Below are positions 14,062 through 63,507 of a stretch of 64,000 bases of DNA, piece by piece. A program made the position numbers and the translations under genes. The stretch is from an uncultured Verrucomicrobiae bacterium. Its GTDB lineage: Bacteria; Verrucomicrobiota; Verrucomicrobiia; Chthoniobacterales; JAATET01. The notes beneath the pieces are model-generated. The model was not told the DNA's origin. It saw nothing but the letters and a program-made list of their open reading frames with translations, and made no database searches. How positions within the stretch are numbered: position 1 is the first letter of the stretch; every line of letters starts with the position of its first letter. The stretch spans positions 32,001 to 96,000 of the forward strand of contig CAVRCI010000008.1 in NCBI GenBank assembly GCA_963719495.1, given 5' to 3'.

Positions 14062-15168
<1,107 letters not shown>

Positions 15169-15170
15169 GG

Positions 15171-15267: not shown

Positions 15268-15287
15268 GTAGAAGCTTCCGTCGTAAG

Positions 15288-15361
15288 TGGCTGCCTCACA
15301 AGGACTCGAACCTTGACAAACAGATCCAGAATCTGCAGTGCTACCATTACACCATGAGGCA
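15288..15361 (-). tRNA. tRNA-Gln (anticodon CTG)
   Basis: Reverse complement TGCCTCA TGGTGTAATGGTAGCAC TGCAGA TT CTG GA TCTGT TTGT CAAGG TTCGAGT CCTTG TGAGGCA GCCA: cloverleaf, T-loop TTCGA, encoded CCA. Confidence 0.97.
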
Positions 15362-15457
15362 ATCTCGCGGGTGCGGGTGGGAGAAGGTGGCGGAAGTTCC
15401 GGGGGATGACAACTTTGTTTTTGGGGGTGCGACTCGGTTTCGGGTAGACCTGTGGGG

Positions 15458-15892: not shown

Positions 15893-15911
15893 GGACTCAG
15901 CCATTCTTTGG

Positions 15912-16006
15912 TGTCATTCTGAGCTTTGCGAAGAATCTCTGACTTGTCAGGCAAAGGTGACACCAGTTCGGGAGGTCAGAGATTCTTCACTTCGTTCAGA
16001 ATGACA
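15912..16006. repeat. Long inverted-repeat element (GTCATTCTGA...TCAGAATGAC), possible bidirectional terminator / MITE-like unit
   Basis: tgtcattctgagctttgcgaagaatctctgac pairs with gtcagagattcttcacttcgttcagaatgaca; lies between convergent genes. Confidence 0.8.
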
Positions 16007-16035
16007 GGTTGAAGGAGGACGGGCGTTGGGGCGGA

Positions 16036-17085: not shown

Positions 17086-17128
17086 TTTCGAGTTATTGGT
17101 TCTTGGTTCATGGTTATTGGTAATGAAT

Positions 17129-43871: not shown

Positions 43872-45332
43872 ATGCGTTTCCCGACAGTCGCCTTCATCCC
43901 GTTCTCCATCGCCGTAATTTTTGCGACCCCCGTTCGAGCCGCGACGGACTTCCAGACCTTTCAGCCAGCGACGACGGTTCTCGGGCAGACCTACTTCACG
44001 AATATTTCCGACTCCGCCGGTCTTCCCAACCGATTCGATGAGCCGGAAGGCGTTGCCGTCGATCCCACAACGGGAAAGGTTTTCATTTCCGACGCGGGAA
44101 ACAATCGGGTCCTTCGGTTCTCGAGTGCGGCGGCTCTCCAGATTGGCGCTAATCCTGAAGCCGTCATTGGACAGCCCAACTTTTCGAGTTTTGCTGCCAA
44201 CCAAGCGGGCCCGGCGTCGGCCCAGACCATGAGCTTTCCGTTCGGCATCACGGTGGACTCCCAAGGCCGACTTTGGGTTGCGGACAATAACAATAACCGG
44301 GTGCTGGGGTTCTTCGTGGCGTCATCGCTCGGCAATAATCCACCGGCCGACGTCGTGCTTGGGCAGCCGGATGCGGCCACCGTCACCAGTGGGACGTCAC
44401 CGATCAAAATGAACGACCCAGCCGGGGTCTTCGTCGGGCCGAACGATGAGCTTTGGGTGGCGGACTCCAATAACGATCGCGTTTTGCGTTTCGACGCGGT
44501 GACGGGCAAGACAACGGGCGATCCCGCCGACGGAGTTCTGGGTCAGCTCGATTTCGTCACCAATGGCGACGGAGTATCCGCGACAGAATTTAATGACCCG
44601 AATTCGCTTTTTGCCGATTCGGTAGGCCGACTTTGGGTGGCCGACACCTTCAACCACCGGGTCCTTCGCTTTGACGCCGCCGCCGGCAAGGTGAACGGTG
44701 CCGCGGCGGATGCCGTGGTGGGGCAACCCGACTTCGACACGAACGTATCCGGAACTTCGGCGCAAAAGTTCAGGACGACCTATGGAGTCTACTTCGACCC
44801 GCTCGGCAATCTGTGGGTGGGTGATTATAACAATGAGCGGGTCCTGCGATTCCCGGATGCTCTGTCCATCACGACCGGGGGCACGGCTGACTTGGTGCTC
44901 GGGAAGCCGAACTTCGCCGCGTCGAGCGGGTTGGCCAGCGCTCGAACCTTCGGCGGTCCCAGCCAGATCGCACCGGGGTCGGGGGGCTCGCTGCTCGTGG
45001 TCGACTATGATTTCAATCGTGTGCTGCGCTTCGATCCCATCAACACGCCCAACGCGCCCGAGCCCGTCGCGCCGACGGCCGGCATCAGCGTTCTCGGGAA
45101 GAAAAAGGTCTTCACGTCGGCCAAGCGCATTCGAATCAAGGGTCGGGCGGACGATGCGGTCCGGATCGAGTTCAAGGCAGGCAAGGGCGGATTCAAGAAC
45201 GCCAAGGGCAACGTCCGCCGGTGGAAAGTCACCCTTCGCCTGAAGTCCAGGCGCACCGTTCTCAAGGTTCGCGCGGTCAATGCGGATGGCGTGGTGACGC
45301 GACCGGAAAAGGTCGTGATTCTCCAGCGGTAG
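43872..45332 (+). CDS. Secreted NHL-repeat beta-propeller protein with basic C-terminal Ig-like domain
   Basis: Signal peptide; six repeats A..VLGQ.F...P.G..VD..G.LWVAD..N.RVLRF; Lys/Arg-rich last ~85 aa. Confidence 0.88.
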   Translation: MRFPTVAFIPFSIAVIFATPVRAATDFQTFQPATTVLGQTYFTNISDSAGLPNRFDEPEGVAVDPTTGKVFISDAGNNRVLRFSSAAALQIGANPEAVIGQPNFSSFAANQAGPASAQTMSFPFGITVDSQGRLWVADNNNNRVLGFFVASSLGNNPPADVVLGQPDAATVTSGTSPIKMNDPAGVFVGPNDELWVADSNNDRVLRFDAVTGKTTGDPADGVLGQLDFVTNGDGVSATEFNDPNSLFADSVGRLWVADTFNHRVLRFDAAAGKVNGAAADAVVGQPDFDTNVSGTSAQKFRTTYGVYFDPLGNLWVGDYNNERVLRFPDALSITTGGTADLVLGKPNFAASSGLASARTFGGPSQIAPGSGGSLLVVDYDFNRVLRFDPINTPNAPEPVAPTAGISVLGKKKVFTSAKRIRIKGRADDAVRIEFKAGKGGFKNAKGNVRRWKVTLRLKSRRTVLKVRAVNADGVVTRPEKVVILQR

Positions 45333-45452
45333 CCGGATTCGTCGCGTGTCTCGGTCCTGGCAGTAGGGGATTTCCCGATCTTGCCCGGGCGGGCCGATTT
45401 TTACGGATGAGCGCTTGGTGAAAACATTGGTTTCCTGATACACACCTCCGCG

Positions 45453-48400
45453 ATGGCGGAGCTTGAAGACGATGCGGACCGGTTTGCGATCATTGGGATC
45501 GGGTGTCGGTTGCCGCCGAGTGGGAATTCTCTCGCCGCGTTCTGGCGCTTTTTGATGAAGGGCGGGAACGCGCTGAAGCCGATCAAGTCGGACCGGTGGG
45601 ATTGGCGGCAGTATTGGGACGGGGATCCGGCGCGGCCCGGGAAGAGTTACGCGCCGAAGGCGGCCTGGCTGGATCAGGACATCAAGCAATTCGATCCGGG
45701 GGTATTCGGGATTTCGCCGCGGGAGGCAGCGTGCCTGGATCCGCAGCAGCGGTTGCTGCTGGAGTCGACGTGGGAGGCGTTCGAGGACGCGGGATTGCCG
45801 GTCGAGCGGATGGCGGGGTCGCGGACGGGGGTGTTCATCGGGGGATTTTGTCTCGACCACCTTTTGTCGCAGACGAAGGCGGCGAATCTGGCGCTGGTGG
45901 ACGCGCATTCGCCGGGTGGCGTGATGATGACGGTGCTGTCGAACCGGATCTCGCACGCGTTCGATCTGCGGGGGCCGAGTCTCACCCTGGACACGGCGTG
46001 TTCGTCGTCGTTGGTGGCGATTCATTACGCGTGTCAGAGCCTGCGGAGCGGCGAATCGGAGTTGGCGCTGGCGGGTGGGGTGAACGTGATGGGGCGGCCG
46101 GAATTCCCGGTGATCATGAGTAAGGGGCACTTCCTTTCCCACCACGGGGAGTGCCATGCCTTCGACGAATCGGCGGCGGGCTACGCGCGAGGCGAGGGGG
46201 CGGGGGTGTTTCTGATCAAGCCGTTGGCGAAGGCGCGGGCGGATGGTGATACGATTCACGCGGTGATCCGCGGGTCGGGGGTGAACTCCGACGGGCGGAC
46301 GGAGGGGCTTTCGCTGCCCAACGGCGACGCGCAGGGGCGGCTCATTCGGGAGGTTTACGAGCGGGCCGGGGTCGCGCCGAAGGACGTGGATTACGTCGAG
46401 GCGCACGGGACGGGGACGCAGGCGGGGGATCCGGCGGAGTTGGCAGCTCTGAACGCGAATTTTGGCACCGGGCGGGAAAGTCCGCTTTGGGTCGGGTCGG
46501 TGAAGACGAACGTGGGGCACCTCGAAGCGGCGGCGGGCGTGGCGGGGATGATGAAGGCGATCGGGGTGCTGAAATATCGGAAGATTCCGAAGAACCTTCA
46601 TTTCGAAAACCCGAATCCGAAGATCCCGTTCGACGATTACGCGCTGACGGTGGTCGCGGCGACGACGGACCTGCCGGGTGCGGACGAGAAGGCGACCTTG
46701 TTCGCGGGCGTGAACGGGTTTGGTTACGGGGGGACGAACGCGCACGTGTTGCTCGAATCGGCTCCGGCGGCGGTGGTGGCCGCGACGAATGGGGCGGCGG
46801 CGGAGGGCTTGCGGGTGGTGCCGTTCTCGGCGGCGGACGAGGGGGCGCTGCGGGATCTCGCGGGGAAGTTTGCGTTTTTGCTGGGCGGGGCGAAGGCGGG
46901 GTCGATGGACGATCTGGCTTACACGACGGCGTTTCGACGGAGCCATTTGCCGGTGCGGTGCGCGGCGGTTTGCGACGGCTTGGGGGCGTTGCGGGATCAG
47001 CTGATCGCGGCGTCGACCGGGCAGCCGGCGGACGGGCTGGTGATCGGATCGCGGGTGGCCGGGGCGGAGCGCGGGCTGGTTTTTGTTTTTACCGGGATGG
47101 GACCGCAGTGGTGGGCGATGGGGCAGGAGCTGATGCGGACGGAGCCGATCGTGGCGGCCACGGTCGACGAGGTGGACGCGGTGTTTCAGCCGCTCGCGGG
47201 GTGGTCGCTCGAGGCCGCGATGCTGGCGGGCGAGGCCGAGTCGCGGATGGCCCACACGGACCTGGCGCAGCCGGCGAATTTCGCGCTGCAGGTCGGGCTC
47301 TTTCGACTGTGGGAATCGCGGGGCATTCGGCCGGCGGCGGTGGTCGGTCACAGCGTCGGCGAGGTGTCGGCGGCTTACGTGGCGGGGGTTTACTCGATGG
47401 AGGAGGCCGTGCTGGTGAGCTATCACCGCAGTCGGCTGCAGCAGACGACGGCGGGGCTGGGGGCGATGCTGGCGGTCGGGTGTTCGGAGGACGAGGCGAA
47501 CAGCTGGATCGGGGATCGCGGCGGCGTTGCGGTGGCGGCGATCAATAGTTTTGGCGCGGTGACGCTGTCGGGGGATCGGGCGGAGTTGGAGACGATCGCG
47601 GCGGAGCTGGAAGCGGCGGGGATTTTCAACAAATTTTTACGCGTCGAGGTGGCGTATCACAGTCCGCAGATGGATCCGATCGAGGCGGAGCTGCTCGAGG
47701 TGCTCGCGCCGCTGAATCCGAAGCCGGCGACGCTGCCGCTCTATTCGACGGCGTATGGCGAGATCGTGGACGCGTCGCGGTGGGGCGCGGATTACTGGTG
47801 GCGGAACGTGCGGCACGCGGTGCGGTTCGCGGATGCGGCGAAGGGTTTGCTCGAAGCCGGGTTTGGGGCGTTTCTCGAGGTTGGGCCGCATCCGGTGCTC
47901 GGGAATGCGATCAAGGAATGCGCGGCGACGCTGGGTCGCGAGGCGACGGTGTTTTATTCGCTCAAACGCAAGGAGCACGAGGCGCGGCGGATGGCTCTTT
48001 CTCTGGCGGAGCTTTACGTGGCGGGGTTCGATCCCGACTGGAGCGCGGTCGCGCCGACGCACGGGCGGATGACGGCGGTGCCGACGTATCCTTGGAAACG
48101 GCAGACGCACTGGCTGGAGTCGGAGCGCTCGTTGCTGGAGCGGGTGGGTCGGAAGGGGCCGGTCTATCTGAATCGGCCGGTGCAGGGGAATCCGACGACG
48201 TGGGAGGTCGAAATCAACCGGAATTTCTTCCCGTTTCTCTTCGACCACGGCGTGCAGGATCAGACGGTTTTCGCGGGGATGGGATACGTCGAGGCGGCGC
48301 TGACGCTGGGCCGGGAGTGCCGGGGCGGCGAGGCGTTCATCCTGGAAAACGTGAGCTTCGAGCGCGTGCTGATCGTGGACAAGATGAAGATCCAGTGTCT

Positions 48401-51400
48401 GGTCAGTTCGTTCGACGCCGAGGGCGGGCGGTTTGCGATTTCCAGCCGGACGGACGGAGAAGCGGCGAGCATGGAGCTGCATTGCCGGGGGCGGATCCTG
48501 CCGCAAGCCGAGCCCATCGTGCCGCGGATCGACCTCGACAAATGGCGGGAGCGGTGCGGCGACGAGGTCGCGATTGCGACGCTTTACGAACATTTGGGCG
48601 GGCGGGGGCTGGAATACGGCGAGGCGTTTCGACCGGCGCTCGCGATGACGGTGGGGCCGGAGCGGTTCGTGATGAAGATCGACTCGGGCCGGGTCGCAAA
48701 GGAGACGGACCATTTGTTGCACCCGTCACTGTTCGACGCGGCCCTACAGGCGGTGCTTTACCGGGCGGGCGGAAAGCACCTTTTCGTGCCGTCGGGGTTC
48801 GAGCGGTTCGAGTATTTTGGGCGGCCGGGTGGCGACGTCTGCTTCGCCGTCGGGGAGCTGGTGGAAACGAGCGCGACGCGGATCGTGGCGCACGCGTGGC
48901 TGACCGACGAGGCCGGGAACGTCGTGGCACACGCGCACGGGATCGCGTTGCAGTCGATCGAGATGGGGGGCGCGGAGGCGGCGGGGGATCCGGTCTACGA
49001 GCTGGGGTGGAAAGTCGCGCCGCGCGATGCCGTGGAGGTGGGTCGGGGCGAGGGGATGGTGTTGGTCGCGGCGGTGGCGGGTGGTCTGATTGACGCGGTG
49101 GCGGAGCGGTTGCCGGAGGCGTGGGTTCGCGACGCCGGGTCGGTGGACGAGGCGTTGGCGGCGGGACGGAAGCGGTTCGTGGTTTTTGGCGGGAGCGACG
49201 AGACGGCGACGGGGCTGGCGGACGAGGCGGAGGCGGCGATCGAGTTGCTGCGGGCGCTCGCGGTTTCGGGTGTGGCTTGTGAGGTGACGTTCGCGACCGT
49301 GCGGGCGCGGGAGGTCGTCGATGGCGAGGGCGTTGCGAACCTGGGCGGGAGCGCGTTGGCGGCGCTGGGGATGGTGGCGGAGAACGAACACGCCGCGCTG
49401 ACGTGCCGTTCGGTCGATCTAGCGGACGCGGGGCCGGACGCGGCGGATTGTCTGGCGCGGGAGCTCGCGCTGGGTGGCGCGGACGTCGCTTATCGCGACG
49501 GGCAACGGTGGGAGTGCGCGCTGGGCGGGCGGCGATTCGAGGCGGCACCGGTGGCGCTGCGGTCGGTGAGTCTCGACGAGCCGGTGACGCTCACTTTCGA
49601 CGCGAAGGGGAAGTCGGGGTCGCTGGGATTCGAGTCGGTCGAGCGGCGGGAGCCGGGGGCGGGCGAACTGGAAATTCGAATCCAGCGGGCGGCGCTCAAT
49701 TACAAGGATCTGCTCAAGGTCGAAGGGAAGATCGATCCACTGGCGCTGGAGGGAACGTTCTGGGGGACGGGCGTGGGGATGGAGTGCGCGGGGGTCGTGA
49801 CGCGGGTGGGGGCGGAGAGCGCGTTTGCGGTGGGGGACCGCGTGCTCACGATTTTGCCGGGCGCGTTTCGGAGTTACGCCACGGTTCCGGCGACCTACGT
49901 GGTGCGGATTCCGGACGGGCTGGATTGCGATCTCGCGGGGGTATCGGTGGTTTACCTCACAGCTTACCGGGGGCTCGTGGACGTCGCGGGATTGGCCGCC
50001 GGGGAGCGGGTGCTCATTCATCACGGGACCGGCGGGCTGGGGCTGGCGGCGATCGGGATCGCGAAGTGGCGGGGCGCGGAGATTTTTGCGACGGCGGGCT
50101 CGGACGAGAAGCGGGCGATGCTGCGGGAACTCGGGGTGAAGCACGTGTATTCATCGCGGACGCTGGACTTCGGCGCGCGAATTCGCGCCGATACCGGCGG
50201 GGAGGGGGTCGACGTCGTGCTGAGCGCGCAGACGGGGCAGGCGATGCACGTGAGCCTCGGGTTGCTGCGGACGGGCGGGCGTTTTGTCGAGGTGGGCAAG
50301 AAGGACATCGCCGAGGACAACGGCCTGCCGATGCGGGCGTTCAATCGCAACCTGACGTTCGCGTCGGTGGACGTCGATCGGCTGTCGCTGGAGCGTCCGG
50401 ACTTGATGAGCGCGACGCTGCGGAAGGTGGTGGATCACTTTGCCGCCGGGGATTTTTCGCAGGGCTCGGTGACGACTTTTGCGGCGGCGGACGTGCGCGA
50501 CGCCTTCGAGTTGATCGCGCGCAGTCGGCACGTCGGAAAGGTGCTCGTCGATCTGGAAAACGGATCGGTCGAGGCGCGGGAATCGGCGGGCGAATCGCCG
50601 ATGATCCGGGCGGACGGGAGCTATCTCATCACCGGCGGAACGTCGGGATTCGGGCTGGCGAGGGCTCGGTGGATGGCGGCGCGAGGCGCGGGGCGGCTGG
50701 TGCTCGCAAGCCGTTCGGGGGCGTCGGCGGCGGGGATGGACGCGGTCGTGGCGGAGCTGGAGGCGGCGGGATCGGTGGTGGACGTCGTGTCGGTGGACGT
50801 GACGGATGCGGGCGCGGTGGCGGAGCTGGTCGCACGGGCCGGGGTGGACGGGATGCCGCTGCGTGGGGTGGTGCATGGCGCGATGGTGCTGGACGACGTG
50901 ATGCTGGCCGACGTGACGCCGGAGCGGTTCCGGCGGGTGTTCGCGCCGAAGGCGGGCGGGGCGGTCAACCTGGCGGCGGCGCTCGATGGGGCGGCGGACG
51001 GATTGGATTTCGTCGTCTTCGATTCGTCGGTCTCGGCGATCGTGGGGAATGCGGGGCAGACGAGTTACGTCGTGGCGAACGCGCTGCTCGACGCGTTGGC
51101 GCGGCGTTTGCGGGCGCGGGGCGTGCCGGCGGTTTCGATCAATTGGGGCGCGTTGGCCGAGTCGGGCGTGGTGGCGCGGGACGGGCGGCTGGGCGACGTG
51201 CTGGCGGCGGGCGGGATCACGGGATTGACCGACGCGGAGGCGTTCGACGCGATGGAGAAGGCGGCGCGGTCGGGGCGGGCGCAGGTGGGGGCCTTCAAGG
51301 TGGATTGGAAACGTTGGGCGGTGGCGAATTCGCGCCGGGCGGAGGATCCGCGTTTCCGGGCGTTGGTCCGGCAGGCGCGGGATGGCGAGGGGGGGGACGC

Positions 51401-51689
51401 GGCGTCGGCGATCCGGTTGTCGCTCGAGGACGCCGCACCGGAGGCACGGGTGCGGGCGCTCGAGGAACACATGCGGGAAGTGCTCGCGAACGTGCTCAAA
51501 ATGGCGAAGGACGCGGTGCCGGTGAACCGGAAGCTCAACGAGATCGGCGTCGATTCGTTGATGGTGCTCGAGCTGGGGCTGGGGATTCGCGAGCGAATTG
51601 GCGTGGAATTTTCGGCCATGGAGTTTCTAAAGGGACCGACGCTGAAGGAGCTTTCGACGTTGGCCGAGGAGCGGCTCTGGCGGAATTAA
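45453..51689 (+). CDS. Single-module highly reducing type I polyketide synthase (KS-AT-DH-ER-KR-ACP, no TE)
   Basis: KS DTACSSS/EAHGTGT/VGHLE; AT GHSVGE, VAYHS; DH LFDHGV..HPSLFDAALQ; ER LIHHGTGGLG; KR ITGGTSGFG, VLDD, GQTSYVVAN; ACP GVDSL; protein ends right after the ACP. Confidence 0.93.
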   Translation: MAELEDDADRFAIIGIGCRLPPSGNSLAAFWRFLMKGGNALKPIKSDRWDWRQYWDGDPARPGKSYAPKAAWLDQDIKQFDPGVFGISPREAACLDPQQRLLLESTWEAFEDAGLPVERMAGSRTGVFIGGFCLDHLLSQTKAANLALVDAHSPGGVMMTVLSNRISHAFDLRGPSLTLDTACSSSLVAIHYACQSLRSGESELALAGGVNVMGRPEFPVIMSKGHFLSHHGECHAFDESAAGYARGEGAGVFLIKPLAKARADGDTIHAVIRGSGVNSDGRTEGLSLPNGDAQGRLIREVYERAGVAPKDVDYVEAHGTGTQAGDPAELAALNANFGTGRESPLWVGSVKTNVGHLEAAAGVAGMMKAIGVLKYRKIPKNLHFENPNPKIPFDDYALTVVAATTDLPGADEKATLFAGVNGFGYGGTNAHVLLESAPAAVVAATNGAAAEGLRVVPFSAADEGALRDLAGKFAFLLGGAKAGSMDDLAYTTAFRRSHLPVRCAAVCDGLGALRDQLIAASTGQPADGLVIGSRVAGAERGLVFVFTGMGPQWWAMGQELMRTEPIVAATVDEVDAVFQPLAGWSLEAAMLAGEAESRMAHTDLAQPANFALQVGLFRLWESRGIRPAAVVGHSVGEVSAAYVAGVYSMEEAVLVSYHRSRLQQTTAGLGAMLAVGCSEDEANSWIGDRGGVAVAAINSFGAVTLSGDRAELETIAAELEAAGIFNKFLRVEVAYHSPQMDPIEAELLEVLAPLNPKPATLPLYSTAYGEIVDASRWGADYWWRNVRHAVRFADAAKGLLEAGFGAFLEVGPHPVLGNAIKECAATLGREATVFYSLKRKEHEARRMALSLAELYVAGFDPDWSAVAPTHGRMTAVPTYPWKRQTHWLESERSLLERVGRKGPVYLNRPVQGNPTTWEVEINRNFFPFLFDHGVQDQTVFAGMGYVEAALTLGRECRGGEAFILENVSFERVLIVDKMKIQCLVSSFDAEGGRFAISSRTDGEAASMELHCRGRILPQAEPIVPRIDLDKWRERCGDEVAIATLYEHLGGRGLEYGEAFRPALAMTVGPERFVMKIDSGRVAKETDHLLHPSLFDAALQAVLYRAGGKHLFVPSGFERFEYFGRPGGDVCFAVGELVETSATRIVAHAWLTDEAGNVVAHAHGIALQSIEMGGAEAAGDPVYELGWKVAPRDAVEVGRGEGMVLVAAVAGGLIDAVAERLPEAWVRDAGSVDEALAAGRKRFVVFGGSDETATGLADEAEAAIELLRALAVSGVACEVTFATVRAREVVDGEGVANLGGSALAALGMVAENEHAALTCRSVDLADAGPDAADCLARELALGGADVAYRDGQRWECALGGRRFEAAPVALRSVSLDEPVTLTFDAKGKSGSLGFESVERREPGAGELEIRIQRAALNYKDLLKVEGKIDPLALEGTFWGTGVGMECAGVVTRVGAESAFAVGDRVLTILPGAFRSYATVPATYVVRIPDGLDCDLAGVSVVYLTAYRGLVDVAGLAAGERVLIHHGTGGLGLAAIGIAKWRGAEIFATAGSDEKRAMLRELGVKHVYSSRTLDFGARIRADTGGEGVDVVLSAQTGQAMHVSLGLLRTGGRFVEVGKKDIAEDNGLPMRAFNRNLTFASVDVDRLSLERPDLMSATLRKVVDHFAAGDFSQGSVTTFAAADVRDAFELIARSRHVGKVLVDLENGSVEARESAGESPMIRADGSYLITGGTSGFGLARARWMAARGAGRLVLASRSGASAAGMDAVVAELEAAGSVVDVVSVDVTDAGAVAELVARAGVDGMPLRGVVHGAMVLDDVMLADVTPERFRRVFAPKAGGAVNLAAALDGAADGLDFVVFDSSVSAIVGNAGQTSYVVANALLDALARRLRARGVPAVSINWGALAESGVVARDGRLGDVLAAGGITGLTDAEAFDAMEKAARSGRAQVGAFKVDWKRWAVANSRRAEDPRFRALVRQARDGEGGDAASAIRLSLEDAAPEARVRALEEHMREVLANVLKMAKDAVPVNRKLNEIGVDSLMVLELGLGIRERIGVEFSAMEFLKGPTLKELSTLAEERLWRN

Positions 51690-51707
51690 TTTCAAACAAC
51701 ACGACTC

Positions 51708-53105
51708 ATGGAAAAATCTCTCCCCGGCATCGACAGTCTCGTCGCTTTCACCAACACGGCGGGCCTCAATGGGCGCGGCACGTTGGTTCACATCTCGCGG
51801 TCCGTCGCCGTCTTCGAGGTCTACAACCCGTATTCGATCATTCAGCTCTCGGAGGTTCTCCAGGAGCTGTCCGTGATGCGCGGCGAGCGGGTGATTTATC
51901 GTGGGCGAGGGGTGGTGACGAGCATCGTGGCGACGGGCTTGATGGTGATCGTGTCGGTGACGTTGATTGATTCGTGGAATTCCGTCGGGCACCTCGAGCC
52001 GGGTGGGGCGCTGCAGGATGCGGTCACGGCGTTCATCAACGACTGGGAGGAGGGGCAGGATCTGACGCCCGAGTATCAGCTGGCGGTGAACCAAATGGCG
52101 GATTTCCTTTCCGATTCGAGCCGATGGATCGAGGAAGCGGAGACGGCGATCGTCGGGACGGAAAAGATCGACCCCGACCGGGCGGCACGGTTCCGCGAGT
52201 CGCTGCAGGAGCCGGTGGCGGCGAAGTTGCAGGGATTGATTCAGGCCTTTGAAAACGAAGCCCGCAACGTGCCGGACGAAGAGTCGGCGCTCTACAAGGC
52301 GTTTTCGCGGCGGGAGATTCATCCCTTCATGCTCTGCGCGCCCTTTGCGTGGCGGTCGTTCTACAAGCCGCTCGGATACGCGGGCGACTACGAGATGGTG
52401 AACATGATGCTCCAGGAGTCGCCCGACGTCGGGAACAACACCTACGCGCGCATCTTCCACGATCTCACGACCAGCGTCGCGGCGTGCCTCGCGCACCGCA
52501 ATCGCATCACGATCCTCGAGCGACTGCTCGCCGAGGAGGCCGAGCGGGTGACCGAGGAAGAGCGGATCTTCACCGTGCTGACGGTGGCCTGCGGACCGGC
52601 GGTCGAGATCCAGCGTTACATCCGGACGCAGGATCTGGCGAACCAGAGCGCGCTGCACCTGATGGATTTCAACGAAGAAACGCTCGCCTACGTGCAGGAG
52701 CGCGTGGAGGCCGCGATGGACGCGTCGGGGCGGAAGCCGACGGTGAAATTCATCCGCAAGTCCATTGATGACCTGTTGAGGAACGTCCACATCGAGAACG
52801 AGGAATTCCTGCCGACCTACGACATGATTTATTGCGCGGGGCTGTTCGATTATTTCCCCGACAACGTCTGTCGCAACCTGCTCGAGCTCTACTACCAGTG
52901 GGTGCGGCCGGGTGGGTTGCTCGCGGCGACGAACGTGCATCCGAACAACCCGGAGCAATTTCTGATGGAGCATTTGCTCGAGTGGTATCTCGTCTACCGG
53001 GACGAGGCGCACCTCGAGTCGCTCGCGCCGAAGGGCTGCTCGCCGGAAGTCTTCGCCGATGACACCGGGGTGAACGTTTTCCTGACCGTGCGAAAGCCCG
53101 AATGA
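51708..53105 (+). CDS. phcB: PhcB-like class I SAM-dependent methyltransferase (signal synthase candidate)
   Basis: KPLGYAGDYEM, AHRNRI, VACGPAVE, LMDFNEETL, YCAGLFDY, PGGLLAATN, MEHLLEWYLVYRD; 465 aa; motif set matches remembered PhcB-family proteins. Confidence 0.72.
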   Translation: MEKSLPGIDSLVAFTNTAGLNGRGTLVHISRSVAVFEVYNPYSIIQLSEVLQELSVMRGERVIYRGRGVVTSIVATGLMVIVSVTLIDSWNSVGHLEPGGALQDAVTAFINDWEEGQDLTPEYQLAVNQMADFLSDSSRWIEEAETAIVGTEKIDPDRAARFRESLQEPVAAKLQGLIQAFENEARNVPDEESALYKAFSRREIHPFMLCAPFAWRSFYKPLGYAGDYEMVNMMLQESPDVGNNTYARIFHDLTTSVAACLAHRNRITILERLLAEEAERVTEEERIFTVLTVACGPAVEIQRYIRTQDLANQSALHLMDFNEETLAYVQERVEAAMDASGRKPTVKFIRKSIDDLLRNVHIENEEFLPTYDMIYCAGLFDYFPDNVCRNLLELYYQWVRPGGLLAATNVHPNNPEQFLMEHLLEWYLVYRDEAHLESLAPKGCSPEVFADDTGVNVFLTVRKPE

Positions 53106-55726
53106 CGAGCCCCCATCCAGTCGAAAGCGATCCGGTGTTGGCCGCCGCATTCCGGGCGTCCAACGGTCGGCGGCTCGTGCGCGGTCTGCTCGTTGCGAAC
53201 GGGCTGTCGGTGATCGGGGTGCCGGGTGGGTTCGTGCTGGATTACTTTTTGTATCCGGCGAATTTTTTGCAGTTTCTCGCGATCCGCTTCGGGGTGGCCG
53301 CCCTGCTGATCGTGATCATGGGCCTGCTCGTCCGGGAGCGGAAGGCGCCGCGAGTCGGTCTCGTCAATGCGCTCGGAATTCTGTCGGCGTTGATCATCAA
53401 TTTTGCGTTTTGCCTGATGATCGCGACGACCGACGGGGCGGGGTCGCCCTACGTCGTTGGGGTGATTCTGATTATCACGTGCTGGGCGGTCATGCTGCCT
53501 TGGACGGCGACGGAGACGGCCGTGGTATGCGTGGTGTCTTACGTCGGCTACGCGGTCGCGTGCTTCGCGAACGCGGGATCGCTGCAGGCCGAAAATTTTC
53601 CGCTCTTCGCGTTCAATTCGTTCTTCGTTTTGATCACGACGGCGGTTTGCGTCGCGATCTCGATTTTTCAGGCGCGGTCGCGGTTCGATGATTTTCGACT
53701 GCGGCACGAATTGGACGAGCGCAACCGCGAGCTGCGGGATCTGGACCGGCTGAAAACGCAATTCTTCTCGAACGTGAGCCACGAACTCCGGACGCCGTTG
53801 ACGATGATCCTGAGCCCCGTGGCGGATTTGCTGCGGCGGACGGAGGCCCTCGAGCCGGCGGTCCACGGGACGATGATCGTCGTGCAGCGGAACACGCTGA
53901 GGTTGTTGAAATTGATCAACGATCTGCTCGATCTCACGCGGATGGATCAAGGCGTCGACGTGCTGCGGCGGAAATCGGTGGAGGTCGACGAGTTCGCGCG
54001 AGGAATCGTCGAGTCGATGCGGCACCTCGGTCTGTCGAAGCGGTTGCGGATGAAGATCGAGGCGGGGGACGCGGGCTTGCGCGGCGATTTCGACCCGGCG
54101 CGGATGGAGAAAGTGCTGCTCAATCTGCTGACGAACGCGATGAAATACACGCCGGCCGGCGGCACGATCACGGTGCGCTGGGGGGCGGGCGAGAGGGCGG
54201 CGGGCGGCGTGTGGTTCGAGGTCGCGGATACCGGCGTCGGGATTCCCGAGGAGGATCTGGCCCGGATCTTCGACCGCTTCCACCAAGTGAAGAGCAATGC
54301 GGCGAATCAGAATCAGGGCGTCGGCATCGGGCTGGCCCTGGCGAAGGAACTCGTCGAGCAGCACGGCGGGACGGTGGACGTGAAGAGCCTCGTGGGCGAG
54401 GGGACGGTTTTCCGGGCGAATCTGCCCGCCGTCGTGGAGGATTTGGACGTCGCCGAGACCGAGCGGATGGCGTTCGACGAAATCGAGGAGCCGTTCGAGA
54501 AGGCGTTTCGCTCGGCGGACCGGAGCTGGACCTACGACGACTCGGCGGACGTGGATTTGCCGGAGGTGGGATCGGGTTCGCAGACCGTGCTGGTGGCGGA
54601 CGACGAGCACGACATGCGGCGCTACGTCGTGTCCCTGCTCGCGGAGGACTATCGCGTGATCCAGACGCAGCACGGCGGAAACGTCGAGGAATTGGTGGCG
54701 AAGCACCGGCCCGATCTCGTGGTGCTGGATTGGATGATGCCCGGGAAGGACGGTTTGCAACTCTGCCAGGCCCTGCGGTCGCGGGAGGAGAACAAGGATT
54801 TGAAAATCGTGCTGCTCACCGCGCGGGCCGACGAGGATTCGAAAATCGACGCGCTGCAGGCCGGGGCGGACGATTTTCTCACCAAGCCGTTCAGCAGCGT
54901 CGAGGTGCGGACGCGGGTGCGGAATCTCCTGCGGGCCGGGCAGATGCAACGCGACCTGCGGGCGAGCAACGACGACCTCACGGCCACGCTGACCAAATTG
55001 CGCGACACCGAGACGATGCTCATCCAGAGCGAAAAGATGAACGCGATCGGCTCGCTTTCCGCCGGGTTGCTGCACGAGATCAACAACCCGCTCAACTACA
55101 CGCTGACGGCGATCAGCATCACCCACCAGTTCCGCGACACGCTGTCGGAGGATCTGCGGGAGATCCTCGACGACGTCGAGGAGGGGATGACGCGGATCCG
55201 TGATGTCGTGACCGATCTGAAAACCTTCGCCTACCCCGAAAAGGCGGGCGTCGAGGCCGACGTGGCGGTTTCGGAATTGCTGCGCAGCGCGCTCAAGATC
55301 ACGGCCGGGGAGCTGGACGGCGTGCGGGTCGACGTCGATCTACCGGAGGATTTCGAGGTGCGCGGACAGAAGACCCAGCTCATGCACATCTTCATCAACC
55401 TGCTCAACAACGCGAGCCGCGCGATGCGGGAGGCCAACCTGGCCGGTCCGCGGGTGGTGACGGTCCGCGGGAGGACTCTGGGCGACTTGGCGGTCGTGGA
55501 GTTGCGCGACAGCGGGCCGGGGATCCCGGCGGAGATCATCAACCGCGTCTTCGATCCCTTTTTCACGACCCGGGCGGTCGGCTCGGGCATGGGGATGGGC
55601 CTGAGCATCTGCCACACGATTTTGGATTCGCACCGGGGCACGATCCGGGTGGAGAATCACCCGGACGGCGGGGCGCATTTCACCATCGAACTCCCACTCG
55701 CCGAGTCGGCGCTACTCTCATGCTAA
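53102..55726 (+). CDS. Membrane hybrid histidine kinase (multi-TM sensor-HisKA-HATPase-REC-HisKA-HATPase), PhcS-like position
   Basis: About 6 TM helices; SHELRTPL, NLLTNAMKY, DTGVGI, GIGL; REC ADDE..DWMMP..KP; second LHEINNPL, NLLNNA, DSGPGI, GMGMGL. Confidence 0.9.
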   Translation: MTSPHPVESDPVLAAAFRASNGRRLVRGLLVANGLSVIGVPGGFVLDYFLYPANFLQFLAIRFGVAALLIVIMGLLVRERKAPRVGLVNALGILSALIINFAFCLMIATTDGAGSPYVVGVILIITCWAVMLPWTATETAVVCVVSYVGYAVACFANAGSLQAENFPLFAFNSFFVLITTAVCVAISIFQARSRFDDFRLRHELDERNRELRDLDRLKTQFFSNVSHELRTPLTMILSPVADLLRRTEALEPAVHGTMIVVQRNTLRLLKLINDLLDLTRMDQGVDVLRRKSVEVDEFARGIVESMRHLGLSKRLRMKIEAGDAGLRGDFDPARMEKVLLNLLTNAMKYTPAGGTITVRWGAGERAAGGVWFEVADTGVGIPEEDLARIFDRFHQVKSNAANQNQGVGIGLALAKELVEQHGGTVDVKSLVGEGTVFRANLPAVVEDLDVAETERMAFDEIEEPFEKAFRSADRSWTYDDSADVDLPEVGSGSQTVLVADDEHDMRRYVVSLLAEDYRVIQTQHGGNVEELVAKHRPDLVVLDWMMPGKDGLQLCQALRSREENKDLKIVLLTARADEDSKIDALQAGADDFLTKPFSSVEVRTRVRNLLRAGQMQRDLRASNDDLTATLTKLRDTETMLIQSEKMNAIGSLSAGLLHEINNPLNYTLTAISITHQFRDTLSEDLREILDDVEEGMTRIRDVVTDLKTFAYPEKAGVEADVAVSELLRSALKITAGELDGVRVDVDLPEDFEVRGQKTQLMHIFINLLNNASRAMREANLAGPRVVTVRGRTLGDLAVVELRDSGPGIPAEIINRVFDPFFTTRAVGSGMGMGLSICHTILDSHRGTIRVENHPDGGAHFTIELPLAESALLSC

Positions 55727-56823
55727 CTAATCCATCCAGCCGCCAATGCGGCATCCTCTACATCGACGACGAAGAAAAAGCGTTGAAATATTTCCGGCTC
55801 GCGTTCGCGCAGAAGTTCGAGATTTTCACCGCGCCATCCGGTCCCGAAGGTCTCGAGATCCTGCGGCGCGAATCCGCCAAGATCGCGATCGTGATTTCGG
55901 ATCAGCGCATGCCCGAGATGCTCGGCGCGGAGATCCTCGAGATCGTCCGCAACGAATACCCGCACGTCGTGCGCATTCTCACCACGGCTTATTCCGACCT
56001 CGAGAGTGCGATCCAGGCGGTGAACCGCGGCCACATCTACCAATACGTGGTCAAGCCCTGGGAAGTGCCGGAGCTGGGCATGGTGCTGCAGCGTGCGTCG
56101 GATTACCACCAGGTGCTGAGTGAGCGCGACGAGTTGCTGGCCGTGAAGTTGAGCACGCTGCAACGCGTGCTCTGCAGCGACCGGGTGAAGTGGCTGCTCC
56201 TGGCTTCGCGGGCGTGGGCCGAGGAGGAGCGAATCGCGCTGCGGCGGACGGTGGTCTCCTTGATCGAGGTGTTGCCGTCGCAGTTGAATCCGGCTCAGAC
56301 CAGGAAAGTGGCCGGAGTGAGCGCGCGTGACTTCGACCTCGAGCGGTTGATCTCCGGCGAATATTCGAACGCGACGATGTGCCTCGACGCGATCGACGCC
56401 CTGCGCGGTGCGTCGGGTTCGTGGAGCGAGCGGGCGACGACCGAGGTGTCCGGCCTGGCCGCCGCGCTGGCGGCCGGGTTGGAAGTGGCGGAGGATTCGA
56501 TCGAGACCGAGGCAAGTGGGTTGGCGGCGAGTGTCGCGCTCGATGGCGCGCCGATCGAGGCCTCGGAATTGGCGAGAGCGCTCGGCGGCGTGTTGGCGGA
56601 GAAGGAGTCCGGCGCGATCGCGGTGAATCTGCTGCGGACGCTGTTTGCGCTGGCGATGGCTGGTGGGAAGCTGGTCGTCACCGGTGGCGGGATGGAGTTT
56701 CGTTTTCTCGAAGGTGACGCCGAAGCGACCTCGGCGGCGGACGTGATCGCCGCGTTGCACGGACAATTCTCCCGCGCCGACCTGGCTGGTCTGCGACCCA
56801 CGGCAACCCCCGCAAAATCATGA
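55720..56823 (+). CDS. Response regulator, PhcQ-like (REC + helical domain of unknown function)
   Basis: ILYIDDEEKALKYF, SDQRMP, VRILTTAYSDLE.AI.AVN.G.I..Y..KPW, ERDELL..KL..LQ. Confidence 0.8.
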   Translation: MLTNPSSRQCGILYIDDEEKALKYFRLAFAQKFEIFTAPSGPEGLEILRRESAKIAIVISDQRMPEMLGAEILEIVRNEYPHVVRILTTAYSDLESAIQAVNRGHIYQYVVKPWEVPELGMVLQRASDYHQVLSERDELLAVKLSTLQRVLCSDRVKWLLLASRAWAEEERIALRRTVVSLIEVLPSQLNPAQTRKVAGVSARDFDLERLISGEYSNATMCLDAIDALRGASGSWSERATTEVSGLAAALAAGLEVAEDSIETEASGLAASVALDGAPIEASELARALGGVLAEKESGAIAVNLLRTLFALAMAGGKLVVTGGGMEFRFLEGDAEATSAADVIAALHGQFSRADLAGLRPTATPAKS

Positions 56824-58022
56824 CAAAATTCAAAAAGAAAGGCGTTCTGATGGTCGACGACGAGGAGATCGCGTTGAAGTATTTCTCGCGGGCCTTCGAC
56901 GACCGGTTCGCGATCCATTCCGTTTTGTCGACGAAGGAAGCGATGGAGTTCCTCGAGGAGCGTGGCGACGAAATCGGGGTTCTGGTGACGGATCAACGGA
57001 TGCCGGACGCGAACGGGCTGGATCTGCTGTGCCGGGTGCGGGAGGAATTCCCGACGGTCGTGCGCATTCTGACGACGGCTTACACGGAGCAGCAGGTGCT
57101 CGTCGACGCGATCAACTCCGGGGCGGTGTATTCGTTCGTGTCAAAACCGTGGGATCTCAACGAGTTGGAGTCAGTCCTGACCAACGCGCTGGAGGATCAC
57201 GAGCGGCAGGCGGCGGAGGCCTCGCTGGTGGCGGCGAAATTCGATGAATTGCGCGCCCAGATTCTGGAGGACCGCGTCTTCGACGTCGGGATGGTATCGG
57301 CCAAGATCGGGCATTACATTCACAACGCTCTGTGCCCGCTCACGTTCATGATCGAGCAACTCCTCGAGCACAGCCCGGCTACGCCCGATCTGCCGCTCGA
57401 GTTCGTTCGCAGCACGCGGGACCACCTTTACGACGTCGCCCAGACGCTCAAGGACCTCGAGCAGGTGAGCCAGCCGACGGCCGAAGCGGACCTCGAATGG
57501 CTGAATCTCGACCACCTGGCGGTGCGGGCCCTCGCGGAGACCGAAGTGATCCGAAATCAGAAGAAGCTCCACATCGAAAAGAAGGTCGATCCGGATACGC
57601 CCCTCATCCGAGGATCACTCGATCAGATCGCCAAGCTCTTCCGCTTCATGATCGCGGAGGAGATCGTCTCGCTGCCCGAGAGCAGCACGGTGCACCTCGG
57701 GATCGCTCCCAACCTCGTGGACGGCGAGGTCCTCGGGGCGCAGATCAGTTTCGACGATTTCGTGCCGGTGGCGCGGCACACGTGCGCGGAGAGTCTGCTC
57801 CATCCCTTCAATCTGCGGGGCTCGAATCCGCGGGAGTTCGGGGTTTTTCTGGTGTCGTGCTACTTCATCGTCCGCCACCACGGGGGGTCGCTGACGGCGC
57901 GGATCAACGAGTGGGGTGGGCTTTCCCTCTCGCTATTCCTCCCCAGCGTGGACGACAGTCCGGCGACGGAGGATTTCCTGCTGACCAAAAGCCTCGGGAA
58001 TCCCTCGAACCGAAAGCGCTGA
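56820..58022 (+). CDS. Response regulator with degenerate kinase core, PhcR-like
   Basis: VDDEEIALKYFSRAF, TDQRMP, KPW; H-box-like GHYIHNALCPL; IVRHHGGSL present but N and G boxes not recognisable. Confidence 0.78.
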   Translation: MTKFKKKGVLMVDDEEIALKYFSRAFDDRFAIHSVLSTKEAMEFLEERGDEIGVLVTDQRMPDANGLDLLCRVREEFPTVVRILTTAYTEQQVLVDAINSGAVYSFVSKPWDLNELESVLTNALEDHERQAAEASLVAAKFDELRAQILEDRVFDVGMVSAKIGHYIHNALCPLTFMIEQLLEHSPATPDLPLEFVRSTRDHLYDVAQTLKDLEQVSQPTAEADLEWLNLDHLAVRALAETEVIRNQKKLHIEKKVDPDTPLIRGSLDQIAKLFRFMIAEEIVSLPESSTVHLGIAPNLVDGEVLGAQISFDDFVPVARHTCAESLLHPFNLRGSNPREFGVFLVSCYFIVRHHGGSLTARINEWGGLSLSLFLPSVDDSPATEDFLLTKSLGNPSNRKR

Positions 58023-58026
58023 ATCG

Positions 58027-59127
58027 ATGATTGCGGGTTCCCCTTTCAAAAAAATTCTCGTCGTGGACGATGAGCCCCTCGTTCGCCAGACGCTGAGCCT
58101 GTGTCTGCGGGACGAATACGACGTGACGGCGGTGGCGTCGGGCGAAGAGGCTCTGGCGGCATCGGCGGCGGATGCCTACCCGGTCGTGCTGTTGGATCTG
58201 TGCATGGAGGGGCTGTCGGGAATCGAGACGCTCAAGCGTCTGAAGGAAATGCGCGAGGTCCAGAAAGTGATCATCCTCACCGCGCACGAGAGCACGGAGA
58301 GCGCCATCGCGGCGGTGAATCACGGTGCTTTCAACTACCTGCTCAAGCCCTTCGAGCGAAAGCACCTCAAGGACGTGATCTCCCGGGGCTTCGCGGATTA
58401 CGAGCAGGAGAATCTCCGGACGCAGGAGATGCAATCGCGGCTGATGAGCGTGCACGACACGTTTTTTTCCATGCTCTGCCACGAGTTCAACACTCCGCTC
58501 AACGTGGTGCTGGGATTCTCGGAGCTGCTTTCGCACGACACCCGGGACGCCGAGCGGTCGGGATGGATCAAGGAAATCCAAAATTCCGGGCGTCAGCTCC
58601 ACGATATCCTCATGGAAATCGTCGATTACGTGAGCGCTTCCCACCTGGCGGAAGCCGGGGTGCAGACCGAATTGCCGCTGGAGGCTCTTTCCGAGACGCT
58701 GATCGCCTTCTCGAAGGAGCGGGGTCTCGTCCTGGAGTTTCACGATATGCGCCCGACCGGACAAAAGTATCGCGGGCCGGAGCGATCGATCCTGATGGTG
58801 GCGCGCAAGCTTCTCCGCATGGCGGCGCGTGGATCCAGCTTGGCGCGGTTGTCGGTGGATGTCGTCGAGAACGGCGATGTGATGGATTTGAGCCTGGTTG
58901 TCGAGCGGGTGAACGATGGGCGCGACGTCGGCCCGCGCGCCCGGCTGGACTCGTTGTTCGACCCCTACGGGGCGATCCGTGAGGGGGCGGGGCAGAGCGG
59001 GTTGGGGCTGGAACTGGCGACCTGCCGGAAGATCGCCGAATACGCGAAAGGCACCGTCGACTGCCAGCTGGCGGGCAGCGGAGAGATGCAGTTCGTCGCG
59101 CGGATTCCAATCGAACGGGTGGGTTAG
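58027..59127 (+). CDS. REC-HisKA-(degenerate HATPase) hybrid regulator
   Basis: ILVVDDEP, LLDLCM, KPF; CHEFNTPLN; SGLGLELATC. Confidence 0.85.
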   Translation: MIAGSPFKKILVVDDEPLVRQTLSLCLRDEYDVTAVASGEEALAASAADAYPVVLLDLCMEGLSGIETLKRLKEMREVQKVIILTAHESTESAIAAVNHGAFNYLLKPFERKHLKDVISRGFADYEQENLRTQEMQSRLMSVHDTFFSMLCHEFNTPLNVVLGFSELLSHDTRDAERSGWIKEIQNSGRQLHDILMEIVDYVSASHLAEAGVQTELPLEALSETLIAFSKERGLVLEFHDMRPTGQKYRGPERSILMVARKLLRMAARGSSLARLSVDVVENGDVMDLSLVVERVNDGRDVGPRARLDSLFDPYGAIREGAGQSGLGLELATCRKIAEYAKGTVDCQLAGSGEMQFVARIPIERVG

Positions 59128-59136
59128 CGGAGGCCG

Positions 59137-60390
59137 GTGAGAGGCTTGTTTCGTTGTTTCGTCGGCGCCGCGGCTGGGCTGTTGCTGGCGGTGGGTTGCT
59201 CGCGGGTGGCGGAGCCGCCGATCCGGGTCGGGGTCTTGCATTCCGAGACCGGGACGATGGCGATGAGCGAGCGAGCCGTGATCAACGCGACTCTGCTCGC
59301 GATTGAAGAAATCAACGAGGCCGGCGGCTTGCTGGGACGGCGGATCGAGCCGGTGATCACGGACGGGGCCTCCGATCCGGCGAGGTTCGCGGTGGCGGCG
59401 GAGCGGCTGCTGGCGGGCGAGGGGGTGAGCGTGATCTTCGGTTGCTGGACTTCGGCGAGTCGGAAGTCCGTGGTGCCGGTCGTCGAGGCGGCGGGCGGGC
59501 TGCTGTTTTATCCGCTGCAATACGAGGGGATCGAGCAGTCGCCGAACGTCGTCTACACGGGGGCGACGCCGAATCAGCAGGTCGTCCCGGCGGTGAGCTA
59601 CGCGTTGCGGGAATTTGGGCCGCGGGTCTTTCTGGTCGGCTCGGATTACGTCTTTCCCCGGATGACGAATCTGATCATTCGCGATCAGGTGAAGGCCCTG
59701 GGCGGACGCGTGGTGGGTGAGGAGTATCTCCCGCTGGGCGGAACGGACGTGGGCGGAATCGTCGACGCCATCGTCGCGGCGCGGCCCGACGTGATCCTCA
59801 ACACGATCAACGGCGACTCCAACGTCCCGTTCTTCGCCGCGTTGCGCGCGATGGGGATCACGCCGGAGAGCGTCCCGACGATGTCGTTCAGCATCGGCGA
59901 GACCGAGCTGGCCCAGATGGAGCCGGGGACGATGGCGGGCGACTACGCGGCGTGGAATTATTTTCAGAGTCTGGACTCGGACCTCAACCGGACGTTCGTC
60001 GACGCTTACCGGGAGAGATTCGGGCGCGACGCCGTGACGTCGGATCCGATGGAGGCGGCTTACGCCGCGGTGAATCTGTGGGCGCGGGCGGTTCGCGACG
60101 CGAGATCGGTGGATCCCGCGGCGGTGCGGGCGGCGATCGGGGGTCAGGGATTTCACTCGCCGGAGGGGTTGGTCTACGTGGACGAGGAGACGCAGCACAC
60201 CTGGAAATCCGCTCGCGTGGGCCGGGTGCGGGCCGATGGGCAGTTCGACGTCGTCTGGGAATCCGACAAGCCCGTGCGGCCGATGCCGTTTCCGATCTTC
60301 CGGACGCGCGCGGAGTGGGAGCGGGCGCTGGAGGATTTGCGAATGGAATGGGGCGGGGCCTGGTCGAACCCGGAGGCGGTGGCTCCATGA
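59137..60390 (+). CDS. UrtA/AmiC-like periplasmic substrate-binding lipoprotein
   Basis: LLLAVGC lipobox; [61 protein letters not shown]. Confidence 0.88.
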
Positions 60391-63134: not shown

Positions 63135-63507
63135 AATTCTCCTCGTCGAAGACAACGAAATGAATCGCGACATGCTGAGCCGCCGGCTCGCGCGCCGCGA
63201 CCACGAGGTGCTCATCGCCGTCGATGGTCAGGAGGGCGTCGACCGGGCGACCGCCGAGAAGCCGGACATCATCCTGATGGACATGAGTCTGCCGGTGATC
63301 GACGGCTGGGAGGCGACGCGGCGCTTGAAGGCCGACGAGGCGACCCGGGGCATCCCGGTGATCGCGCTCACGGCGCACGCGATGGCGGGGGACCGGGAGA
63401 AAACGATGGAAGCCGGGTGCGACGACTACGACACCAAGCCGATCGATCTGCCGCGGCTGCTCGAGAAAATTGCGACGCAACTGGCGAGGGTCGGCGGCGG
63501 GACATGA
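63127..63507 (+). CDS. Single-domain response regulator (DivK/CheY-like)
   Basis: [33 protein letters not shown]. Confidence 0.92.

Follow-up and report, generated by a model that had tools for sequence, protein, structure and literature searches.

A polyketide synthase-linked, Phc-type methyltransferase and sensor kinase cassette in an uncultured Verrucomicrobiae bacterium, a candidate system for making and sensing a lipid methyl ester

In a stretch of DNA from an uncultured Verrucomicrobiae bacterium (GCA_963719495.1, contig CAVRCI010000008.1, positions 32,001-96,000), six consecutive genes encode a type I polyketide synthase (PKS), an S-adenosylmethionine (SAM)-dependent methyltransferase, a hybrid sensor kinase and three receiver proteins. 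All coordinates given here are those of this 64,000-nt stretch, hereafter the window. The locus raises the question of whether these genes constitute a signalling system of the type encoded by phcBSRQ in Ralstonia and, if so, whether the PKS supplies the acyl chain of the signal. Our analysis makes it probable, with real room for doubt, that this is a Phc-type signal-synthase and sensor cassette with an acquired private acyl-chain factory, making and sensing an undescribed lipid methyl ester. The six genes are the following.

45453..51689, + strand: PKS gene (2078 aa), a single-module, fully reducing type I enzyme with the order ketosynthase (KS), acyltransferase (AT), dehydratase (DH), enoylreductase (ER), ketoreductase (KR), acyl carrier protein (ACP), from Pfam and catalytic motifs
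51708..53105, + strand: PhcB-family SAM-dependent methyltransferase gene (465 aa), from full-length alignment to a phc-locus protein of R. pickettii
53102..55726, + strand: hybrid sensor kinase gene (874 aa), from Pfam, hydropathy, BLASTP and hhalign to PhcS
55720..56823, + strand: receiver protein 1 gene (367 aa), Phc-type receiver with a 230-aa tail without Pfam match
56820..58022, + strand: receiver protein 2 gene (400 aa), Phc-type receiver with a degenerate kinase-like tail and PhcR-like architecture
58027..59127, + strand: receiver-histidine kinase gene (366 aa), with Pfam REC, HisKA and HATPase_c, of a generic type

A preliminary description of this DNA had proposed a quorum-sensing system composed of a dedicated PKS, a PhcB-like methyl ester synthase and a relay resembling PhcS, PhcQ and PhcR. 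The layout it gave, six co-oriented genes that overlap or lie at most 18 bp apart, is confirmed by the coordinates of the open reading frames (ORFs), which are separated successively by an 18-bp gap, a 4-bp overlap, a 7-bp overlap, a 4-bp overlap and a 4-bp gap. The motifs it quoted were all located as well, namely KPLGYAGDY at residue 220, ACGP at 294, YCAGLFDY at 375 and EWYLVYR at 425 of the methyltransferase, and, in the receiver proteins of 367 and 400 aa, DDE..A.KYF at residues 16 and 13, respectively.

The first step towards an answer is the identity of the methyltransferase. Its only Pfam match is Methyltransf_25 (residues 290-403), marginal at 28.7 bits for a cut-off of 27, and no NCBIfam family matched. 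By BLASTP, the protein aligns over 458 of its 465 aa with the phc-locus protein of R. pickettii (41.9% identity, E 2e-124), and full-length alignments were also obtained with the phc-locus methyltransferases of Cupriavidus and Paraburkholderia. A tblastn search of plasmids recovered a homologue in Paraburkholderia graminis (42% identity, 97% of the query, E 8e-103), after which come a 445-aa kinase and two response regulators; the related-locus search with this P. graminis protein yielded 80 loci from Burkholderiales, among them Cupriavidus necator and Ralstonia pickettii. The R. pickettii locus comprises four ORFs of 463, 453, 377 and 333 aa that fit the phcB-phcS-phcR-phcQ order and domains given in PMC8578825; the PhcB, PhcS, PhcR and PhcQ labels on this locus were assigned in this analysis from order and length. 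In an alignment of 35 methyltransferases from both phyla, six of them from Burkholderiales, 50 invariant columns are spread over the whole length, and among the matches listed 15 of the 120 relatives carry the JGI name "3-hydroxypalmitic acid methyl ester biosynthesis protein". Trees place the window methyltransferase nearer to the phc-locus methyltransferases than to many other Verrucomicrobial members of the family. The grouping with PhcB thus stands on both full-length identity (42%) and tree position, and the enzyme is a full-length PhcB family member, including the N-terminal part that is not methyltransferase.

The nature of this N-terminal part was approached by structure prediction. 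The AlphaFold model of the methyltransferase, built on the 35-row alignment (predicted local distance difference test score, pLDDT, 86.1; predicted template modelling score, pTM, 0.74), comprises a six-strand barrel (residues ~10-86), a helical domain (~100-283) and a Rossmann class I methyltransferase fold (~288-462). With the whole model, Foldseek returned only generic class I methyltransferases, the best being 3ocj (E 9e-11, target-normalised TM-score 0.60) and the remaining ones including PKS C-methyltransferases, and gave no clue to a hydrolase function. The barrel was also modelled alone (N-terminal 95 residues, pLDDT 86.0), and its eight best matches among 48,161 chains were all PilZ domains, with Z-scores of 8.6-10.0 that are modestly above the tool's stated background of 7-8, root mean square deviations (rmsd) of 2.7-3.2 Å over 81-94 residues and 10-16% identity. 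They include MrkH (Z 10.0, rmsd 3.2 Å, 94 residues), PP4397 and YcgR (Z 9.4), as well as Alg44 and the BcsA C-terminus. Pfam at E values up to 5 gave no PilZ and nothing meaningful on the N-terminus, and the motifs for binding of cyclic di-GMP, RxxxR and D/N-x-S-x-x-G, were not seen in the methyltransferase alignment.

The second step is the sensor. The multi-transmembrane hybrid kinase of the preliminary description is borne out by Pfam (HisKA/HATPase at residues 218-443, REC at 496-606 and a second HisKA/HATPase at 630-869) and by six hydrophobic segments within residues 28-186, as judged by hydropathy. Phospho-acceptor residues are present in all three modules (H226 in core 1, D542 in the receiver and H658 in core 2). 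When compared by hhalign, the sensor region (residues 1-205) matches the PhcS N-terminus with a probability of 100% (E 4e-38, 196 columns), while core 2 matches the PhcS core with E 1e-65 and core 1 with E 9e-29. BLASTP gave a similar picture: PhcS is matched by residues 43-442 (27%, E 2e-33) and its kinase core by residues 614-868 (41%, E 2e-56), and residues 486-865 align to PhcR (25%, E 1e-22). Core 2 is the kinase core most like that of PhcS. The internal receiver matches the PhcQ and PhcR receivers at E 1.5e-10 to 3.8e-16. Among metagenome loci with at least 3 kb downstream, the long form of the kinase is the commoner one (28 long versus 19 short). A separate observation concerns genome G290, where a single in-frame stop (locus L022, 10089-12806) cuts the long kinase into two ORFs with 72 bp between them, one PhcS-like (485 aa) and one a receiver-kinase (395 aa), an arrangement that resembles Ralstonia, where phcS and phcR are separate genes.

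The proteins downstream of the kinase were compared in the same way. All three are led by REC according to Pfam, as had been described, with REC only in genes four and five and REC-HisKA-HATPase in gene six. Receiver 1 (motif DDEEKALKYF, phospho-acceptor D61) matches the PhcQ and PhcR receivers with E 7e-42 and 1e-43, and receiver 2 (DDEEIALKYF, D58) with E 3e-43 and 2.5e-42. On the tails of both, Pfam at E values up to 5 gave nothing meaningful and no kinase family. The tail of receiver 2 matches the PhcS kinase core at E 7.5e-12, and in PKS-less loci the orthologous tail matches that of PhcR (E 1.9e-15). According to PMC8578825, PhcR consists of a receiver and a kinase domain and PhcQ of a receiver, both without a DNA-binding domain. 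Receiver 2 is a PhcR-type protein with a receiver, a kinase-like domain and no DNA-binding domain. In the sixth protein (D56, H-box H152), the receiver matches the Phc receivers at E 5e-22 and 1e-15, far more weakly than receivers 1 and 2 do. Of the proposed PhcQ/PhcR-like relay, the two DDE..ALKYF receivers (E ~1e-42) and the PhcR-like receiver 2 hold, whereas the third receiver protein is a generic REC-kinase. The relay is Phc-like in its parts and their order but rebuilt, with an extra core and receiver in the kinase and an additional receiver-kinase.

Given these homologies, the next question is whether synthase and sensor belong together. In a phylum sample of 401 genomes, 15 including that of the window carry the methyltransferase at E 1e-30 or better. 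The long kinase directly follows it in 14 of the 14 others (L022 counted, with its kinase split by the stop), and a Phc-type receiver protein comes next in 12 of them. A metagenome scan gave at least 600 stretches, at least 587 of which encode a relative of the methyltransferase; in the synteny set of 80 metagenome loci, a kinase starts within 600 bp downstream of the methyltransferase in all 71 that have at least 700 bp of downstream sequence. The Burkholderiales loci, too, have the kinase after the methyltransferase. In the methyltransferase tree of 104 rows, all loci with a short PhcS-type kinase, every Burkholderiales row included, fall in one 38-row clade (100% support), which also holds 11 rows whose kinase length was not scored and one long-kinase row, and the long double-core kinases accompany other branches.

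This pairing bears on what the system is for. In an alternative reading, the methyl-esterified lipid made by PKS and methyltransferase is no cell-density signal but, for example, a volatile, an antimicrobial or an envelope component, and the kinase monitors this lipid or the membrane state as feedback. Diffusion and density dependence of the product are themselves predictions from the genes, the receiver proteins have no DNA-binding output and the sensor lies wholly within the membrane, where it could read membrane content, all of which would suit such a role. However, strict pairing of synthase and sensor, as in the 71 of 71 loci above, is a hallmark of autoinducer systems, and the homologous module of Ralstonia and Cupriavidus is an established diffusible-signal system (PMC8578825, PMC2842291). 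We consider the non-signal reading improbable.

The third step is the PKS. Pfam places KS at residues 10-385, AT at 543-860, DH at 914-1172, ER at 1402-1699, KR at 1722-1902 and ACP at 2007-2069, which bears out the described domain order without thioesterase; no thioesterase or other release domain was recognised by Pfam, the protein terminates at the ACP, and all orthologues examined end there too, none with a thioesterase. The catalytic motifs are intact and kept in 12 orthologues, namely DTACSS, HGTGT and NVGH in the KS, GHSVG in the AT, the catalytic His (DHGVQ) and Asp (HPSLFDAALQ) of the DH, GTGGLG in the ER, LDD with Y1872 and N1876 in the KR and GVDSL in the ACP. The subclade of the window PKS has HxxxDxxxxA, as opposed to the canonical HxxxGxxxxP of more distant orthologues. 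Ketoreductases with an LDD motif are of the B type and yield (R)-3-hydroxy intermediates. The likeness to mycocerosic acid synthase (MAS)-like and Pks2-like enzymes lies in the KS-AT-DH-ER-KR-ACP order, the single module and the lack of a thioesterase, and the closest NCBIfam matches are PKS_plus_SDR and Pks2. Scores remain far below the cut-offs of these equivalogs (1127 versus 2400 bits for Pks2, 1185 versus 1740 for PKS_plus_SDR), and the enzyme shares their architecture without being a member of either named family. The partners also differ, with a methyltransferase in the cassette and an acyltransferase in Pks2-like systems. The genome of the window has one phosphopantetheinyl transferase and no other type I PKS match; it encodes a FabF (639 bits) and a FabH (416 bits) of its own, both above curated cut-offs, and thus the PKS is not the housekeeping synthase.

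The PKS is also tied to the methyltransferase by gene order. The complete order from PKS to the sixth gene is found in five of the 14 other genomes, which come from two other families, and in all six metagenome contigs long enough to show it; the sixth gene itself is kept in 5/5 syntenic genomes and 6/6 long metagenome loci. In 12 of the 80 metagenome loci, the C-terminus of a PKS lies 31-93 bp upstream of a methyltransferase with 52-75% identity to that of the window. The adjacency of PKS, methyltransferase and kinase that the preliminary description expected elsewhere is therefore borne out by the five genomes, which represent two other families, and by the 12 metagenome loci. In the 104-row methyltransferase tree, from which no row was dropped, the 18 PKS-linked rows (the window, the five genomes and the 12 metagenome loci) require one change of label, with support in the Shimodaira-Hasegawa-like approximate likelihood ratio test (SH-aLRT) of 100% for the inner 17 rows and 81% for the 18th. 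A more careful 24-row tree contains a PKS-linked clade of six rows with 100/100 support and groups it with the Burkholderiales clade (98/97); the methyltransferase trees are unrooted, and no direction between Verrucomicrobia and Burkholderiales is claimed from this grouping. Across loci, PKS identities sort into two tiers, and methyltransferase identities into the same two.

With the same six-gene order in five genomes and in six of six long contigs, the block is more than chance. Adjacency by chance or in decay, without joint function, has no specific support besides the in-frame stop in the L022 kinase, whereas the six frames are open, catalytic residues are kept in 12 orthologues that have diverged to 48% identity and three families and many metagenomes share the gene order, so we regard this explanation as extremely improbable.

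The main rival concerns the source of the acyl chain. It accepts a genuine Phc-like signal system and has it fed by housekeeping fatty-acid synthesis as in Ralstonia, with the PKS as an output gene for a separate lipid, co-transcribed or under the control of the signal. The presence of FabF and FabH in the genome fits this, and so do PKSs of the same architecture with other partners. Two full-length matches of 37-38% identity occur in genomes without the methyltransferase: one in G075 (L191, 5578-12526; 38% identity, KS-AT-DH-ER-KR-ACP) has a sulfotransferase directly downstream and genes for an adenosine 5'-phosphosulfate (APS) kinase and a 3'-phosphoadenosine 5'-phosphosulfate (PAPS) reductase-like protein nearby, and may represent a PKS-fed sulfolipid pathway of the same design, and the other sits among other ketosynthase genes. 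As these matches have other partners, the architecture is a general lipid-making module coupled to different partners. On the other side, the cassette PKS lacks a release domain and Pfam recognised no other tailoring, release or export gene in the cassette; in all 18 cases the PKS is the gene immediately before the methyltransferase, at a distance of 18-93 bp, and it never comes after the regulators. In the phylum-wide search, only the five genomes with the methyltransferase had full-length PKS orthologues of 48-51% identity, always adjacent to the methyltransferase and never apart from it, in counts that are a floor given the stricter first look used in that search. On balance, we judge supply by housekeeping synthesis to be unlikely, though less so than the non-signal reading.

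Several points, including this limit on the PKS counts, nevertheless weigh against a private PKS feeding a Phc-type signal. The methyltransferase-kinase module occurs without a PKS in nine of the 14 genomes, in the distant metagenome loci (0/52 with a PKS upstream, among those with less than 50% identity and at least 500 bp upstream, a split chosen after seeing the data, for which the tree is the fairer statement) and in Burkholderiales, where none of 81 phc loci has a PKS within ~7 kb, as the preliminary description had held for the classical operon. Since the module mostly does without a PKS, fatty-acid synthesis can serve the family as a source, and the PKS might be no more than a product gene that is co-transcribed or regulated by the signal. 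Moreover, the PKS-linked loci form a single clade and thus represent one evolutionary event, not independent support. The AT specificity motif is VAYHS in all 12 orthologues, which is non-canonical, so that an extender unit is not predicted, a further difference from the MAS/Pks2-like comparison system. A SAM methyltransferase methylates a free carboxylate, and an ACP thioester would hence require a hydrolytic step; no hydrolase domain was recognised in the methyltransferase, the N-terminal domain of which resembles PilZ domains and not a thioesterase. The likeness to the Phc relay is also partial. The PhcS-like sensor kinase of the preliminary description holds for the membrane sensor (hhalign E 4e-38) but not for the architecture, since PhcS has a membrane sensor and a single core (~450 aa) and the cassette kinase is an 874-aa sensor-kinase-receiver-kinase with an additional core and receiver. 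Similarly, the PhcQ-likeness of receiver 1 is strong in the receiver and weak in the tail, which matches the PhcQ tail with a probability of 81% and E 1e-5 over 194 columns; BLASTP aligns the receiver part only.

The PKS-less loci were inspected for another source of substrate, and no acyl-supply or biosynthetic neighbour shared by the nine PKS-less methyltransferases was common across lineages. Individual neighbours were seen as follows. Three PKS-less genomes that belong to a single genus encode a protein resembling flavin-dependent halogenases (Trp_halogenase/FAD_binding_3) upstream of the methyltransferase and on the other strand. Its gene is the immediate neighbour in L023 (2495-3880) and L024 (10752-12089), lies one ORF further out in L026 (5042-6412), and may point to a halogenated variant of the signal. 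The L025 locus (13141-18923, - strand), also PKS-less, has a PKS of another kind, with acyl-AMP ligase-ACP-KS-C-methyltransferase followed by KR-ACP, that is convergent with the kinase gene. Downstream of the receiver at L027 (14725-15909, + strand) is a gene for an outer-membrane channel of the FadL/TodX type, for hydrophobic compounds.

Taking the private PKS supply as the preferred reading, the cassette would work as follows. The iterative, fully reducing PKS would build a fatty-acyl chain on its own ACP, with (R)-3-hydroxyacyl intermediates expected from the B-type ketoreductase. The PhcB-family methyltransferase would then accept the acid on the ACP (or after hydrolysis) and set it free as the methyl ester. 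According to PMC4549310, PhcB is thought to act on 3-hydroxypalmitoyl-ACP, which fits a partner PKS that ends at its ACP and lacks a thioesterase. A further step, which we put forward as a tentative possibility and hold to be rather doubtful, is that the PhcB-family enzyme itself is the chain-release catalyst of the PKS, taking a 3-hydroxyacyl chain of defined length off the ACP as the methyl ester. The ester would be hydrophobic and probably diffusible, and would be sensed by the six-segment, PhcS-type membrane domain of the hybrid kinase; phosphate would pass through the kinase's own receiver and second core to the two Phc-type receivers and the receiver-kinase. The cassette receiver proteins have no DNA-binding domain, as in Ralstonia.

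The limits of the cassette were defined by comparison with its relatives. A gene for a periplasmic binding protein (Peripla_BP_5/6, E 9e-159) begins at 59137, 9 bp past the sixth gene, followed by one for a dCache-HAMP hybrid kinase with two receivers, the pair occupying 59137-63134 (+ strand). Both were considered as cassette members and rejected, as neither has a counterpart in the loci of the relatives, and therefore the end at 59127 given in the preliminary description is upheld; the two genes look like a sensing pair of their own that has docked onto the cassette. Scans of 44800-63500 were uninformative for promoters (one promoter-like site versus 2.0 expected, on the wrong strand) and for terminators (24 terminator-like sites versus 13.3 expected, none convincing between the cassette genes). 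A search of sequencing runs gave no RNA run; it gave one DNA run that contained 0.26 of the words, and two more DNA runs from that study that contained almost none. Elsewhere in the window, an AcrB-type resistance-nodulation-division (RND) efflux pump (36603-40349, - strand, E 6e-184) is encoded 5 kb upstream of the cassette, and a predicted ORF of 2264 aa (2708-9502, - strand), without Pfam match at E 1e-5, adjoins a VWA/YfbK-like protein (9597-11981, - strand) in a stretch with a strong GC skew (0.25-0.38).

The closest known system is phcBSRQ, in which a diffusing methyl ester of a 3-hydroxy fatty acid is sensed by the kinase and the output runs through the LysR regulator PhcA. Shared features are a full-length PhcB homologue as the first gene of the signalling block, followed by a kinase with a homologous multi-segment membrane sensor, and receivers of the same subtype that have kinase-like or unassigned tails and no DNA-binding domain (PMC8578825). 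The cassette differs in the type I PKS ahead of the methyltransferase (0/81 Burkholderiales loci), in the 874-aa kinase, where an extra core and a receiver separate the sensor from the PhcS-like core, in having three downstream receiver proteins and not two, and in its phylum, Verrucomicrobiota. In the literature, Phc counts as a Ralstonia speciality and is called a "genus-specific QS system" (QS, quorum sensing; PMC8578825), and a complete Phc system is reported for C. necator (PMC2842291). We found no paper joining PhcB with Verrucomicrobia or with a dedicated PKS and no described cell-to-cell signal for Verrucomicrobiota, in a search that mostly left out subscription journals and is thus not proof of absence. 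The general logic is a familiar one. In CqsA/CqsS, LqsA/LqsS and RpfF/RpfC, the synthase of a hydrophobic, fatty-acyl-derived autoinducer is encoded beside a multi-pass membrane hybrid kinase that acts as its sensor; these systems follow the same logic with unrelated synthase families.

The synthase-sensor module is thus now found in a different phylum, abundant in soil, and its methyltransferase family is large (at least 587 metagenome stretches). If the proposed reading is true, the Ralstonia phcBSRQ operon would be one reduced branch, with a short kinase and no private synthase, of a large and mostly uncultured methyltransferase-kinase family, and part of the "orphan T1PKS" (type I PKS) count in soil metagenomes would represent signalling and not antibiotic synthesis. 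Release by the methyltransferase would be a new mode of PKS off-loading that yields a bespoke autoinducer of a new class, the first quorum-sensing chemistry known in Verrucomicrobiota, and would offer a handle on the social behaviour of these hard-to-culture bacteria.

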